Shown in pieces: positions 13,923 through 20,531 of a stretch of 64,000 nt of DNA (positions within the stretch are counted from its first letter, which is position 1; the number at the start of each line of letters is the position of its first letter). The DNA comes from Nanobdellota archaeon (GTDB lineage: Archaea; Nanobdellota; Nanobdellia; Parvarchaeales; Parvarchaeaceae), in the NCBI GenBank assembly GCA_021817165.1, contig JAKAVT010000001.1:4343-68342 (forward strand), read 5' to 3'. The notes below the pieces were generated by a model. The model did not search any database. It saw nothing but the letters and a program-made list of their open reading frames with translations, and was not told where the DNA came from. A program made the position numbers and the translations under genes.

Positions 13923-14240
13923 ATGATGGATTCAAATAGGAAAACGTATAGATTAGATGAGATACTTGGAAAACCTATTGTAATGTCCTCTGATAAAAAA
14001 ACCCTGATTTATGGATTGAACGTTAAAGACAGAGAAGTTGCAATTTCTGCATATTCAGAAAGCGAGTCAAGAACGGGATACTTCCATAAAGTAGAAATAG
14101 AATACCTGCCTGCTTCAATGTATCTGATAAATGGAAGCTGCACGTGCGAATCCTTTCAATACTACGGTATGCCATGCAAGCACATGCTAAAGGTAAGAAA
14201 CGTATACATTAAAAACAGGAATAAATTCAGTAAAGACTAG
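13923..14240 (+). CDS. Small stand-alone SWIM zinc-finger protein
   Basis: CxC-x(n)-CxH signature CTCESFQYYGMPCKH. Confidence 0.6.
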   Translation: MMDSNRKTYRLDEILGKPIVMSSDKKTLIYGLNVKDREVAISAYSESESRTGYFHKVEIEYLPASMYLINGSCTCESFQYYGMPCKHMLKVRNVYIKNRNKFSKD

Positions 14241-14718
14241 AAAAAACTTCCTTAGGTATGAGTTCCTTTATTTCTTTCTTTTCTATGTCTTCTCTCATTA
14301 AATCCTTTGCGTTGTTCTCATTCAATTTTTCAATGGAAAGCAGTTTATCTATGAATTCTATCCCTTTAGAATGCTTATAGCTTAGATCTATGAAATTGAC
14401 GTAAAATGAAAGGTATTCTTTTCCGAAAACGTCCAAGATATTCATAACTTTTCCTTTATCCGTGGAGAAAAACTTGTTTGACAGATAGGACACTGTATCA
14501 GTATAATAATATTGACTGATGGTCTTTACAACCTTTTCGTAAAACAATTTTCTATACGGTCTTTCTAGATTTCTGCCGTAAACCGCTATATCATCTGCTA
14601 ACTTGTCGGCGGTAAGGCCGAATTTCGAAAGCTCGTTTTCCAATGCAGAAACCCTTGAATTAGTCATTCCTGATTTAGAAAGCTCATTTCTGAAAAGAGA
14701 TTTTATTTTATCTTCCAT
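14227..14718 (-). CDS. Hypothetical protein
   Basis: Long ORF with non-repetitive composition and no motif recognised. Confidence 0.5.
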   Translation of the reverse strand: MEDKIKSLFRNELSKSGMTNSRVSALENELSKFGLTADKLADDIAVYGRNLERPYRKLFYEKVVKTISQYYYTDTVSYLSNKFFSTDKGKVMNILDVFGKEYLSFYVNFIDLSYKHSKGIEFIDKLLSIEKLNENNAKDLMREDIEKKEIKELIPKEVFSSLY

Positions 14719-14845
14719 TTTTTTATATGAATAGAAGGTATATAAATACTTTTAATTGAATAAAACAGGGGACAAACTAAAAAATCTCTGCGATTACGAA
14801 AACTGTTTAGATTATTACATTAAATCAACTATATTAAATCAAAAT

Positions 14846-14914
14846 TCAATCAGAGCAGCCACAACTGCAACCACAGCCGCATCCGCATTTTTCTTCTTTT
14901 TCTTCTTCTGCCAT
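14846..14914 (-). CDS. Candidate 22-aa Cys-rich micro-protein MAEEEKEEKCGCGCGCSCGCSD
   Basis: I translated this by hand. It runs ATG to TGA, 30 nt downstream of the pyrG stop on the same strand, with a TATA-like element about 26 nt upstream of the ATG. It is not in the ORF track because it is too short. Confidence 0.35.
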   Translation of the reverse strand: MAEEEKEEKCGCGCGCSCGCSD

Positions 14915-14935
14915 AAGTTTAAAGCAATCTTTTGT

Positions 14936-14944
14936 TTTATATAA
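14936..14944 (-). promoter_or_regulatory. TATA-box-like element (TTATATAAA on minus strand) upstream of the Cys-rich micro-ORF
   Basis: It is centred about 26 nt upstream of the ATG at 14914, a spacing consistent with a leaderless archaeal transcript. AT-rich background makes this weak. Confidence 0.3.
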
Positions 14945-16549
14945 TTAACTGTTCTTCTTTGCAGCGTCAAGAAAAGACAAAAACAGCGGAGAGGGAGATT
15001 CTATTCTTGATTTTAACTCGGGATGCGCTTGCGTAGCAATACCAAAACCGCTTGGCCACTCAATTATCTCCACCAATTTGCTGTCTTTTGTTGTTGCCGT
15101 TATCCTCAACCCATTCTTTTCAAGAATTTTCCTAAATTTGTTGTTAAGCTCGTACCTGTGCCTGTGCCTTTCCGACACGATATTCTTATGATAAGAAGAA
15201 AACGCTATCGAATCCTTGTTTTTTATGACCATGTCCCACGCACCGAGTCGCATTGTTCCGCCTTTCTGCTTTACTGAAAGCTGTGAAGGCAATATATCTA
15301 TTATTTTGTATTTTGTGCCAGGATCGAATTCCGTTGAATTAGCACCATCTAAATTGCACACGTCTCTTGCAAATTCTACGGCCATGAGCTGCATGCCCAA
15401 GCACAATCCTAAGTAAGGTATGCCTTTTTCCCTAGCATACTTTATTGCGTTTATCATGCCTTCTATTCCTCTTTTCCCAAAACCACCAGGAACTACCAGA
15501 CCGTTAACTCCTTTTAATACGCTTTCAGGATCTGACTTCTCCAGTAATTCGGATTCTATCCATTTCACGTTAAGATTAACCGATAGCTTGCCGGCAGCAT
15601 GCATCAATGCTTCTCTAACGCTTACATAAGAATCCCTTAATTCGACGTATTTGCCAACAACGGCGATTGTTGTGCTCTTTCCTGTTTTGCTTACTATCTT
15701 GTCAACGTCATCTTTCCATGTACGAAGTTTCTCGCTGTTTATCTTCCTTTTTGGAACGTTAAAGGAGTCCAAAAGTATTCTGTCAAAATTCTGATTTATA
15801 AGATACTGCGGCAGTTGGTAAGGTGAGTCCATATCTGGATCGTTTATCACCCTGCTTTCGTGAAGACTTGTAAACATGGCAAGTTTCTTTTTAATGCTAT
15901 CGCTCATTTCCCCGTCTGTTCTGCATATAAGGAATTGTGGGATTATCCCCATTCCCATCAGGGTTCTAAATGCAGATTGTGTAGGTTTGCTTTTCTGCTC
16001 CCCCACCGTTTTTAATCTCGGTACGTAGGTAACATCAACGAAGACTACTTCTTCCTTAAGTGAAAGCTGTCTCATGGCCTCTATGAAATAGCCATTTTCA
16101 ATATCTCCTACAGTTCCGCCAACTTCTATTACTACAAAATCCAGATTGTTTTTGGCTGCAAATCCCTTTACTTTTTCCTGTATCTCATTTGTAAGGTGCG
16201 GTATGACCTGCACGTCCTCACCCAGATATTCTCCGCGTCTTTCTTTTTCTATTATCCCGCCGAAAAGCTTTCCCCCTGTTATGGAAGAACTACTGGTAAG
16301 ACTGCGATTAAGGAACCTTTCGTATGTACCGAAGTCCATGTCTACTTCTCCTTTATCGTCTAGTACAAAAACTTCACCATGCCTGTAGGGGTTCATTGTA
16401 CCGCAATCATAGTTTAGATAACCGTCGAATTTTATGGGAAGAACCTTGAAATCATACATGTCCAATATCTTCATTATAGAAGAGGATACGACTCCCTTAC
16501 CTAAGCCGCTCATTATCGATCCGAGCACTACTATGAACTTTGCTGGCAT
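14945..16549 (-). CDS. pyrG: CTP synthase
   Basis: N-terminal synthetase domain (GSIMSGLGKG) and a C-terminal glutamine amidotransferase domain with GLCLGMQ. Confidence 0.95.
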   Translation of the reverse strand: MPAKFIVVLGSIMSGLGKGVVSSSIMKILDMYDFKVLPIKFDGYLNYDCGTMNPYRHGEVFVLDDKGEVDMDFGTYERFLNRSLTSSSSITGGKLFGGIIEKERRGEYLGEDVQVIPHLTNEIQEKVKGFAAKNNLDFVVIEVGGTVGDIENGYFIEAMRQLSLKEEVVFVDVTYVPRLKTVGEQKSKPTQSAFRTLMGMGIIPQFLICRTDGEMSDSIKKKLAMFTSLHESRVINDPDMDSPYQLPQYLINQNFDRILLDSFNVPKRKINSEKLRTWKDDVDKIVSKTGKSTTIAVVGKYVELRDSYVSVREALMHAAGKLSVNLNVKWIESELLEKSDPESVLKGVNGLVVPGGFGKRGIEGMINAIKYAREKGIPYLGLCLGMQLMAVEFARDVCNLDGANSTEFDPGTKYKIIDILPSQLSVKQKGGTMRLGAWDMVIKNKDSIAFSSYHKNIVSERHRHRYELNNKFRKILEKNGLRITATTKDSKLVEIIEWPSGFGIATQAHPELKSRIESPSPLFLSFLDAAKKNS

Positions 16550-18113: not shown

Positions 18114-20531
18114 TTAAAGAAGGGAGAACTCCTTGTCTTTTTTGTAAGCGAATACCTTGACAACATCCGTTATTAAAAGGAAAACGACAGCAACAGCTCC
18201 TATTAGTAGTATATAGTATGCGCTTATGCTTGACATAAGTATTCCAAAATTTGCTATTATGAACGTTATTGCAATGGCCAGAACTATCTGCAGTATGACG
18301 GGTATGCTTGGCCTGGAATGGAAGAATCTTCTTCTGGATCTTATTGACAAAAGAAGCGCTTCTATCGAGAAGATAAACGCAACGAACATGAACGTTTCAA
18401 AGGAGATATGGCTTAGATGGAAATAAAACAGACCAAGATAGGCAAGCACAGAAACCTCTAGTATTGCCATTACTCCGAAAATGATAGACGCAAAGAATAT
18501 TGCTTTTATGTCCCATGCATCCGGTTTCTTTGAATAGCTTTCCTTGTCCGTAGACAGGGCTATGCTTCCTATGTCATTTATGAATATCATGAGGATAAGC
18601 TGTATTGCCCTTATCGGCAGGAATCTCAGTATTATAAATGCAATTGACAGGAAAAACGCTATCTGGAATATTCTTGTTACTTTGTTTAAGGTATAGCTTA
18701 TCATCCTTTCAAATATAGACCGGCTTTCCTTTACCGCATTCACTATCGGTTCTATCCCTGGAGAGGTTAAAACTATCGTTGCCGCGCTTTTTGCAACATC
18801 CGTAGCATTTGAAACCGCTATGCCCACTTCTGCTTGTTTCAAAGCAGGCGCATCGTTTACGCCGTCGCCTGTCATACCGACATGATAGCCCGAGTCTTGC
18901 AATGCCTTTACTATGGTGTATTTGTCCTTTGGAAACACTCCTGCGAAACCGTCATGCTCTATAACCAACCTTGAAAGTGTCTTTTCATCTAATCCTTCCA
19001 AAACCTTAACATCAAGTATTTTTTCTCCTATCCCAACCTCCTTAGCGATCTCCTTTGCAGTATCTATATTGTCCCCAGTCAGCATCTTTGTCCTTATCCC
19101 TAGCGCTTTAAGCTCCCCTATCAAAGTTTTACTGTCTTCCCTAGGTTTGTCGTTTAGCGGGATTATGCCAACAAATGACCATTCTTTCTTATCCGTTAAT
19201 TTTGCAGCAACGGCTATTGTACGATAGCCCTTTAACGACATTTCTTTTATCTTCGCATTTAATTTTTTAGTTTCCAAAGGATCTAAGGAGCATCTCTTCA
19301 TTACAATTGACGGGAAACCTTTTATGGCAGACATCTTCTTTCCGTTGAGTATGACGTCTGCCTGCGATATTTTCGTAGACGGGCTAAACGGAATAAATTT
19401 TACCAGCTTGTAATTTAACTCAAGGCTTTTTGTATCGTACTTTTTAAATCCATCTATGATCGCATTGTCTATTTCATCGTTGTCTTCTCTTCTTGAGGCA
19501 AGGGATCCGTAAAAAAGGACTTCCTGCGCGGAGAATTTGCCATAGCCAAACGGCTCTGAAGCTGAAAGCTGGTTGCTTGTTATTGTCCCTGTTTTATCAA
19601 GGCAGACTACGTTCATTGTGGATGCCTCTTCAATCGCTTCGAGTTTTGTAACAAGAATGTTCTTTGATGAAAGCCTTTCGGTTCCGTAGGCCATTGCAAC
19701 GGTAAATGCCGCCGGCAGCGCTACTGGAACGGATGCTAGAAGGATAAGCAGGGCAAATGGAACTATAGTAAGCAGATTTATACGGAAAAGAAACGAAGCC
19801 ATAAAAACCGCAGCAATTAGTGCAACGTCTACGTAGATAAGCAATTTAAGCAGCTTTAAAATGTCATTTTCTAAATGCATCTTGCCTCCTGCTATCTTTA
19901 CAAGCTCTGCGGTTTTTCCGAAAGAAGTGTTATTTCCGGTCTTTAAAACAATGGCGGTCGCTTCTCCTTCTCTTACGGTTGAGGATGAAAAGATAGTGTC
20001 TCCCTCCTCTCTGTCAACGGGCAGTGACTCTCCGGTTAGCATTGACTGATCAACTGAAAGATAGTCTCCCTCTATTATAAGGCAGTCTGCAGGCACTATG
20101 TCTCCGAGTCTTATTCTGATTACATCTCCCGGCACGAGCATTTTAGCCGGCATCTTCTTCCATTGATTGTCTCGTTGTACGTTAACATTTACTGAAAGTT
20201 TGTTCTTCAACAGTTCTAGGGTATTGTCTGCCTTGAATTCCTCGAGAAAACCTGCTATTCCATTAAATAAAAGAAGACCTATCACTATGTATGCGTCTAC
20301 GTCTTTTCCAAGAAAGAATGATATTGCTATTACAATTAAAAGCATGAGCGGTATTGGGCCCCAGAATTTTGAAAGAAATTTTCTTATCGGGCTGACTTTT
20401 TTGCCGGTTATTTCGTTGTAGCCATACTTTTCAAGCCGCTCGGAGGCTTCCTTTTCGGAAAGACCGTTTTTGCTAGAGGATAATTTTCTAAATTCTTCTT
20501 CCTTGTTTATTTTTTCCGATGTTCTGGCCAT
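18114..20531 (-). CDS. P-type ATPase, plasma-membrane H+-ATPase-like (P3A-like)
   Basis: TGES, phosphorylation site CLDKTGTIT, and hinge MTGDGVNDAPALKQAEVGIAV. The subtype is assigned by overall resemblance only. Confidence 0.9.
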   Translation of the reverse strand: MARTSEKINKEEEFRKLSSSKNGLSEKEASERLEKYGYNEITGKKVSPIRKFLSKFWGPIPLMLLIVIAISFFLGKDVDAYIVIGLLLFNGIAGFLEEFKADNTLELLKNKLSVNVNVQRDNQWKKMPAKMLVPGDVIRIRLGDIVPADCLIIEGDYLSVDQSMLTGESLPVDREEGDTIFSSSTVREGEATAIVLKTGNNTSFGKTAELVKIAGGKMHLENDILKLLKLLIYVDVALIAAVFMASFLFRINLLTIVPFALLILLASVPVALPAAFTVAMAYGTERLSSKNILVTKLEAIEEASTMNVVCLDKTGTITSNQLSASEPFGYGKFSAQEVLFYGSLASRREDNDEIDNAIIDGFKKYDTKSLELNYKLVKFIPFSPSTKISQADVILNGKKMSAIKGFPSIVMKRCSLDPLETKKLNAKIKEMSLKGYRTIAVAAKLTDKKEWSFVGIIPLNDKPREDSKTLIGELKALGIRTKMLTGDNIDTAKEIAKEVGIGEKILDVKVLEGLDEKTLSRLVIEHDGFAGVFPKDKYTIVKALQDSGYHVGMTGDGVNDAPALKQAEVGIAVSNATDVAKSAATIVLTSPGIEPIVNAVKESRSIFERMISYTLNKVTRIFQIAFFLSIAFIILRFLPIRAIQLILMIFINDIGSIALSTDKESYSKKPDAWDIKAIFFASIIFGVMAILEVSVLAYLGLFYFHLSHISFETFMFVAFIFSIEALLLSIRSRRRFFHSRPSIPVILQIVLAIAITFIIANFGILMSSISAYYILLIGAVAVVFLLITDVVKVFAYKKDKEFSLL

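Follow-up and report, generated by a model that had tools for sequence, protein, structure and literature searches.

A genome of Candidatus Parvarchaeum carries, downstream of the CTP synthase gene pyrG, an unannotated 22-codon micro-ORF that is very probably a real gene. Comparison of orthologs showed that it is under purifying selection in the frame of the peptide. The predicted product, a short Cys-rich peptide, may be a metallothionein-like thiolate peptide for soft metals, a reading whose probability we place at about 0.5.

A Cys-rich micro-ORF downstream of pyrG

The micro-ORF is located on the minus strand of the window (the whole 64,000-nt stretch of DNA that was analyzed) at positions 14846..14914, with its ATG at 14914-14912 and its TGA at 14848-14846. 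It encodes MAEEEKEEKCGCGCGCSCGCSD, a peptide of 2258 Da that contains little besides Glu, Cys and Gly and in which an acidic nine-residue N-terminal part precedes a six-Cys (C-x)5-C block and a Ser-Asp C terminus. The six Cys are contained in an 11-residue run, CGCGCGCSCGC. This Cys-rich minus-strand ORF had first been picked out by a reading of the DNA letters without database searches (the sequence-only reading), and the analysis recovered it at exactly the same coordinates. Several details of that reading also proved correct. The ATG (14914) follows the pyrG stop codon (14945-14947) by 30 nt, the Cys codons (TGC/TGT) and the Gly codons (GGA/GGC/GGT) vary, and an ORF on the plus strand at 14756-14944 is the mirror frame of the micro-ORF.

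Cys accounts for 27% of the peptide, versus 0.72% of the residues in the long ORFs of the genome, whose assembly comprises 762 kb in 15 contigs and is approximately 90% complete. The assignment to Candidatus Parvarchaeum is independently supported by pyrG proteins that share 90% clusters with those of the genus relatives and that NCBI names Candidatus Parvarchaeota archaeon or Candidatus Parvarchaeum sp. We determined how often such Cys density occurs in this 762-kb genome. Three of its 34,122 stop-to-stop frames have at least six Cys in 12 residues, a density that no frame of three shuffled genomes reaches. The other two such frames were both rejected: one, on contig C7 at approximately 11 to 12.8 kb, results from reading a Thr/Ser/Ala-rich gene on its antisense strand, and the other is an off-frame stretch, a verdict for which only its hydrophobic sequence was considered.

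Purifying selection in the peptide frame

A profile made from 15 aligned orthologs and searched in six frames identified orthologs, each in a single copy, in 20 of the 33 genomes of Candidatus Parvarchaeum. It gave no match in about 268 genomes of the class outside the genus (7 genomes from other genera of the family and 262 further ones), nor in approximately 395 further genomes across the phylum; these searches outside the genus double as a specificity control for the profile. The orthologs are 21 to 27 residues long, mostly 21 or 22, with 5 or 6 Cys, and their lengths differ by whole codons only. Among the 15 that were aligned, Met1, five Cys and one Gly are invariant, and the x positions between the Cys residues vary among G, S, N, D, A and E. 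The start codon, the stop codon, the frame and the promoter spacing are all kept in the 19 other genomes.

The distribution of the substitutions is that of a protein-coding gene. In ten orthologs of equal length, the variable columns fall 4/4/17 on the first, second and third codon positions, and the mean pS and pN values are 0.69 and 0.064, respectively, giving a pN/pS ratio of approximately 0.09. Mean pairwise identity is higher in the ORF (0.86) than in the last 66 nt of pyrG (0.79) or in the downstream flank (0.70). Selection at the peptide level, for which the variable codon usage had been taken as a weak argument, is thus borne out by the column counts and the pN/pS ratio. The sequence-only reading had also proposed a search for conserved micro-ORFs downstream of pyrG in related genomes, holding that a frame not kept among relatives, with substitutions that ignore codons, would speak against the gene; we found the same ORF in genome after genome, with the changes sitting at third positions. 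In contrast, the mirror ORF of the plus strand has a pN/pS ratio of 2.2 and is interrupted by a stop in one ortholog, and it was rejected as a gene.

The micro-ORF was also found, with an identical sequence, in contigs of three further studies. A fourth sequencing run contained variants from co-occurring relatives, one synonymous and one K6N, which mirror the pattern seen among the orthologs.

Conservation does not extend to the entire genus. There was no HMM match to the micro-ORF in 13 of the 33 genomes, and at least three genomes of the genus have no ORF at the syntenic site, indicating that the micro-gene is dispensable. The genomes of the deepest subclade have approximately 33 nt between pyrG and the gene that follows it, and no micro-ORF is present there.

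Two pattern scans covered a wider range of DNA. In all species genomes, the motif CGCGCxCxC yielded, among the matches listed, mostly GC-rich simple repeats, and none had the short-ORF architecture with an acidic leader after frame filtering. A scan of metagenome contigs with the family pattern, which also allowed TGG at the position of the stop codon, returned 19 matches, none of which is a family member. A contig of Streptomyces sp. NPDC004647 carries a 20-codon ORF, MAKGCGCGCGCGCDCGCDWG, in DNA with a GC content of 70%; it may have arisen by chance from a GC-rich repeat.

We considered whether the locus might yield no functional peptide at all. The ORF could instead be a read-through tail of pyrG, a leader whose Cys codons regulate the gene downstream, or part of a structured RNA. 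In this genome the ORF is indeed in frame with pyrG, across the 30-nt gap, and it is situated just upstream of another gene, as such readings would have it. However, the substitution pattern is that of coding sequence, and conservation extends to residues other than Cys, which argues against a Cys-codon leader. A structured RNA found no support: the fold z-score was -0.05 relative to shuffled sequences, and all Rfam matches were far below their gathering scores. The two other forms of this explanation, a read-through tail and an attenuator, depend on the neighboring genes and are taken up below.

Transcription unit and gene neighborhood

A TATA box, TTATATAA, is present on the minus strand at 14937..14944, 22 nt before the ATG and directly after the pyrG stop codon. 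In all orthologs, including three that do not adjoin pyrG, a TATA-like 8-mer ends 21 to 22 nt before the ATG. For the 659 long ORFs of the genome, the TATA-to-ATG spacing peaks at 19 to 23 nt, with a mode of 21, arguing that leaderless mRNAs are the norm in this genome and that the promoter of the micro-ORF is therefore normal. The prediction of a leaderless promoter with an element centered approximately 26 nt upstream of the ATG was thus confirmed by TTATATAA and its spacing. Between this TATA box and the ATG lies a spacer (14915..14936, minus strand) with a motif, (A)GTTTGCTTTAA, which is written GATTGCTTTAA in this genome. The motif is kept in 11 close orthologs although their synonymous sites are saturated, and it could represent an operator or a promoter-proximal element.

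The 3′ flank of the micro-ORF (14779..14845, minus strand) is the least conserved segment of the locus (mean pairwise identity, 0.70). It contains oligo-T runs, as the sequence-only reading had noted, namely T4 at 14841-14844, T4 at 14799-14802 and T6 at 14779-14784, and in close relatives a run of T5 to T7 is found 15 to 35 nt past the stop codon. These runs are probably archaeal termination signals. Having its own TATA box and T-runs past its stop codon, and being followed by a gene that also has its own TATA box, the micro-ORF has the layout of a short monocistronic gene. Its arrangement supports independent transcription of the micro-gene as a leaderless mRNA.

The gene upstream, pyrG (14945..16549, minus strand; TIGR00337, 657 bits), is linked to the micro-ORF only by conserved gene order, and on this point the sequence-only reading has to be corrected. 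The gap between the pyrG stop codon and the micro-ORF is 30, 31, 18 or 19 nt depending on the genome, so that neither the spacing nor the frame relation is conserved, and in three orthologs another gene intervenes. The varying frame relation excludes a read-through tail of pyrG.

On the downstream side, the micro-ORF is followed in this genome by a conserved gene for a 163-residue protein without a family match (14227..14718, minus strand). The leaderless promoter of this gene (14719-14760), AAAAGTATTTATAT...TTCTATTCATATAAAAAAATG, is near-invariant in the close subclade, its conservation being far above that of the surrounding intergenic DNA. The 163-residue protein is characteristic of the subclade of this genome, whereas in seven deeper orthologs the downstream gene codes for a DUF1059 protein; each of the two has its own TATA box. 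An attenuator would require a fixed downstream gene devoid of a promoter, and this variation between lineages argues against it, as do the T-runs that separate the ORF from the downstream gene. We thus regard the absence of a functional free peptide, in any of the forms considered, as very improbable.

The DUF1059 genes of the seven deeper members of the genus code for proteins of 69 to 77 residues and directly follow the micro-ORF (e.g., L032:1640-1873, L044:1678-1899 and L045:1654-1884, all on the plus strand). This genome also has a DUF1059 gene, which is found on another contig than the micro-ORF (C7:77282-77446). The DUF1059 family is essentially uncharacterized, having no relative in the PDB and scarcely any mention in the literature searched; it bears the label of a predicted small metal-binding protein. 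A gene for a 105-residue SWIM zinc-finger protein (13923-14240, plus strand) is convergent with that of the 163-residue protein and overlaps its 3′ end by 14 nt. The SWIM gene is syntenic across the genus, and in the deepest subclade a relative of 180 residues is encoded directly after pyrG on the same strand. The window also contains a gene for an 805-residue plasma-membrane proton-efflux P-type ATPase (18114-20531, minus strand; TIGR01647, 753 bits), an enzyme that an acidophile would be expected to have.

Candidate functions of the peptide

We found no Pfam or NCBIfam match for the peptide at E values up to 10, including to the metallothionein families (PF00131, PF02069, PF11403 and others), and the profile of the micro-ORF family retrieved no solved structure from the PDB sequences. 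Its function must thus be inferred. Operational criteria used to recognize metallothioneins from their sequences are a molecular mass of less than about 10 kDa, a high content of Cys in conserved C-x-C, C-C or C-x-x-C motifs, and almost no aromatic residues or His. At 2258 Da, with orthologs of 21 to 27 residues, the peptide is well within the size range; 27% of its residues are Cys, the five Cys columns that are invariant in the 15 orthologs all belong to C-x-C motifs, and no aromatic residue or His is present in any of the 20 orthologs. The peptide displays every one of these sequence-level features and is predicted to bind metal. Near-identical DNA to the locus was detected in metagenomes of mine drainage, mine tailings and sediment. 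These come from seven studies, among which three are possible sources of the assembly, and none of the sequencing runs found to contain the locus is an RNA run. The Cys content in consecutive C-x-C motifs, the lack of aromatic residues and His, and the metal-rich mine drainage habitat make the metallothionein-like reading the best one.

According to this proposal, the TATA promoter of the gene would give rise, in Candidatus Parvarchaeum, to a leaderless mRNA of approximately 70 to 140 nt, and the gene product would be a cytosolic peptide of approximately 2.3 kDa, probably kept soluble by its acidic N-terminal part. Its five or six Cys, arranged in successive C-x-C motifs, would serve as ligands of soft metal ions such as Cu(I), Zn/Cd(II) or As(III) in a small metal-thiolate cluster, such as Cu4S6 or M2S6, and one cluster might be shared by two peptides. 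Both Cu4S6 and the binuclear M2S6 clusters have six thiolate ligands, the number that the peptide offers. Such a miniature metallothionein would buffer or sequester metals in an organism of acid mine drainage.

Several observations count against a metallothionein. No metal-responsive regulator or metal transporter adjoins the micro-gene, and no metal operator was identified. The micro-gene is also dispensable within the genus, and its product is unlike any metallothionein family or solved structure in sequence. Among the genomes of the genus, CopA is present in 8 of the 20 that have the micro-gene and in 4 of the 13 that do not, showing no association between the two. The strictly alternating C-x-C-x-C arrangement differs from the Cys patterns of known metallothioneins, and six thiolates are the lower limit for a cluster held by a single peptide.

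Elsewhere in the genome, one Cu/heavy-metal P1B-ATPase, of 677 residues, is encoded on contig C5 (locus L051:982-3015, plus strand), and this ATPase is found in only 12 of the 33 genomes of the genus. A gene for a 50-residue YHS-domain protein (L051:830-979, plus strand) overlaps its start (TAATG), forming a copM-copA-like pair. Neither an HMA domain or HMA-type chaperone nor ArsB was found in the approximately 90%-complete genome. The missing HMA-type chaperone, the missing glutamate-cysteine ligase (see below) and the DUF1059 gene next to the micro-gene in seven deeper orthologs form a genomic context in favor of the metallothionein-like reading.

Alternatively, the thiolates might serve as ligands of iron-sulfur clusters. 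As a mini-ferredoxin, a cluster carrier or a storage form, the peptide would use four of its six thiolates to ligate a [2Fe-2S] or [4Fe-4S] cluster, which two peptides might share. Biological Fe-S ligands typically follow a CxxCxxC...C pattern rather than C-x-C, which counts against this role. In vitro, redox-active Fe-S clusters are bound by short peptides of the Glu-Cys-Gly type and by duplicated forms of these (PMC11339926), which makes the role chemically plausible for a peptide made almost wholly of the same three residues. The iron-rich habitat would also suit such a role. However, the micro-gene is unlinked to the SUF operons of the genome and is dispensable within the genus. An Fe-S function thus finds no support in the genome, and we consider it rather improbable.

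A redox role had been put forward by the sequence-only reading, and the peptide might indeed be a gene-encoded thiol buffer or oxidant scavenger, standing in for a low-molecular-weight thiol of the glutathione type. Neither of the two families of glutamate-cysteine ligase was found in the approximately 90%-complete genome, and the peptide, with its six thiols in 22 residues, has a composition that echoes glutathione. On the other hand, many archaea do without glutathione, and thioredoxin is present in this genome. The exact conservation of the Cys positions is also better suited to a defined cluster geometry than to a bulk supply of thiols. This role overlaps with known roles of metallothioneins, which makes it hard to separate from the metallothionein-like reading by sequence; taken on its own, it appears quite improbable.

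The peptide might also be a structural zinc micro-protein that modulates a partner protein instead of buffering metal. Archaea are known to contain small, Cys-rich micro-proteins that have regulatory partners, and the conserved acidic N terminus and Ser-Asp C terminus might provide an interaction surface. Nevertheless, the peptide has neither CxxC knuckles nor hydrophobic core residues, and no co-varying partner gene was identified, the neighbors differing by lineage. The chances of such a regulatory function seem slim.

Finally, a Cys-rich peptide of this kind might be the precursor of a modified product, as the sequence-only reading had also envisaged. Azole-type and radical-SAM RiPPs typically have cores rich in Cys, Gly and Ser, like that of the micro-ORF, and maturation might yield a thiazole-rich or thioether-bridged product, for example. 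However, no YcaO protein was found in the approximately 90%-complete genome, and Elp3 is its sole radical-SAM protein. RiPP leaders typically need at least 20 residues for recognition, whereas that of the peptide would have 9, and 8 to 15 residues precede the first Cys in the orthologs. The conserved neighborhood, consisting of pyrG, DUF1059, the 163-residue protein and the SWIM protein, is also devoid of a maturase, protease or exporter. The missing YcaO, the single radical-SAM protein and the short leader thus disfavor a RiPP precursor, which we hold to be extremely improbable.

To return to the metallothionein-like reading, the closest parallels are the fungal Cu-metallothioneins of family 8, found in Neurospora crassa and Agaricus bisporus. 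Like the archaeal peptide, they consist of a single domain of approximately 25 residues, have a Cys content of approximately 27% in C-x-C motifs with intervening Gly, Ser, Asn or Asp residues, and contain no aromatic residues or His. With 26 residues and seven Cys, these fungal Cu-thioneins are the shortest metallothioneins reported (PMC4755600), and they demonstrate that a peptide as small as this can be a metallothionein. Their pattern, X2-CXC-X5-CXC-X3-CXC-X2-C-X3, is interrupted (PMC4755600), in contrast with the uninterrupted (C-x)5-C block described here. The archaeal peptide also differs from the fungal ones in having five or six rather than seven Cys, a charged nine-residue N-terminal part and mostly 21 or 22 residues, and there is no detectable homology between them.

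Among prokaryotic proteins, the mycobacterial Cu(I) metallothionein MymT, whose thiolate core is predicted to accommodate several Cu(I) ions, was similarly discovered as a non-annotated small ORF (PMC7558416). Both MymT and the archaeal peptide are Cys-rich products of small unannotated ORFs. However, MymT (4.9 kDa) is approximately twice as long and unrelated in sequence, and it is induced by copper and needed for Cu resistance. Phytochelatins, (gamma-Glu-Cys)n-Gly, which sequester Cd, Cu and As, share with the peptide a makeup of Glu, Cys and Gly and several thiols per molecule. They are synthesized enzymatically from glutathione and have gamma-linkages, whereas the archaeal peptide would be gene encoded, with normal peptide bonds.

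Metallothioneins are well known in eukaryotes and have been called rare in bacteria (PMC7558416). The reviews of bacterial metallothioneins that we examined describe prokaryotic ones as rare and do not mention Archaea, and nowhere in the literature searched is the term "archaeal metallothionein" used. Nor do the open papers that we examined state explicitly that Archaea lack metallothioneins. By its sequence features, the micro-ORF appears to define a new genus-restricted family with the makeup of a metallothionein and a length below that of any characterized member. A more far-reaching proposal is that the peptide is the smallest gene-encoded metallothionein known (21 or 22 residues, 5 or 6 Cys) and among the first archaeal ones, that it arose recently, perhaps de novo, from the intergenic DNA after pyrG in Parvarchaeum, and that it acts as the principal thiolate buffer of the cytosol for Cu, As or Fe in a nano-archaeon whose genome yielded neither glutathione synthesis nor a CopZ-type chaperone. 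We consider this extended version unlikely.

Restricted to one genus, the micro-gene offers a tractable example of recent gene birth, and the peptide is short enough to be synthesized and tested directly. If it is a metallothionein, the class would be extended to a new domain of life and its known size limit would be lowered. The finding also points to a gap in annotation. The usual minimum gene length of gene callers is 90 nt, and a gene of 69 bases, falling below it, would go unannotated in uncultured archaea, where a layer of metal biology would thus be missed.
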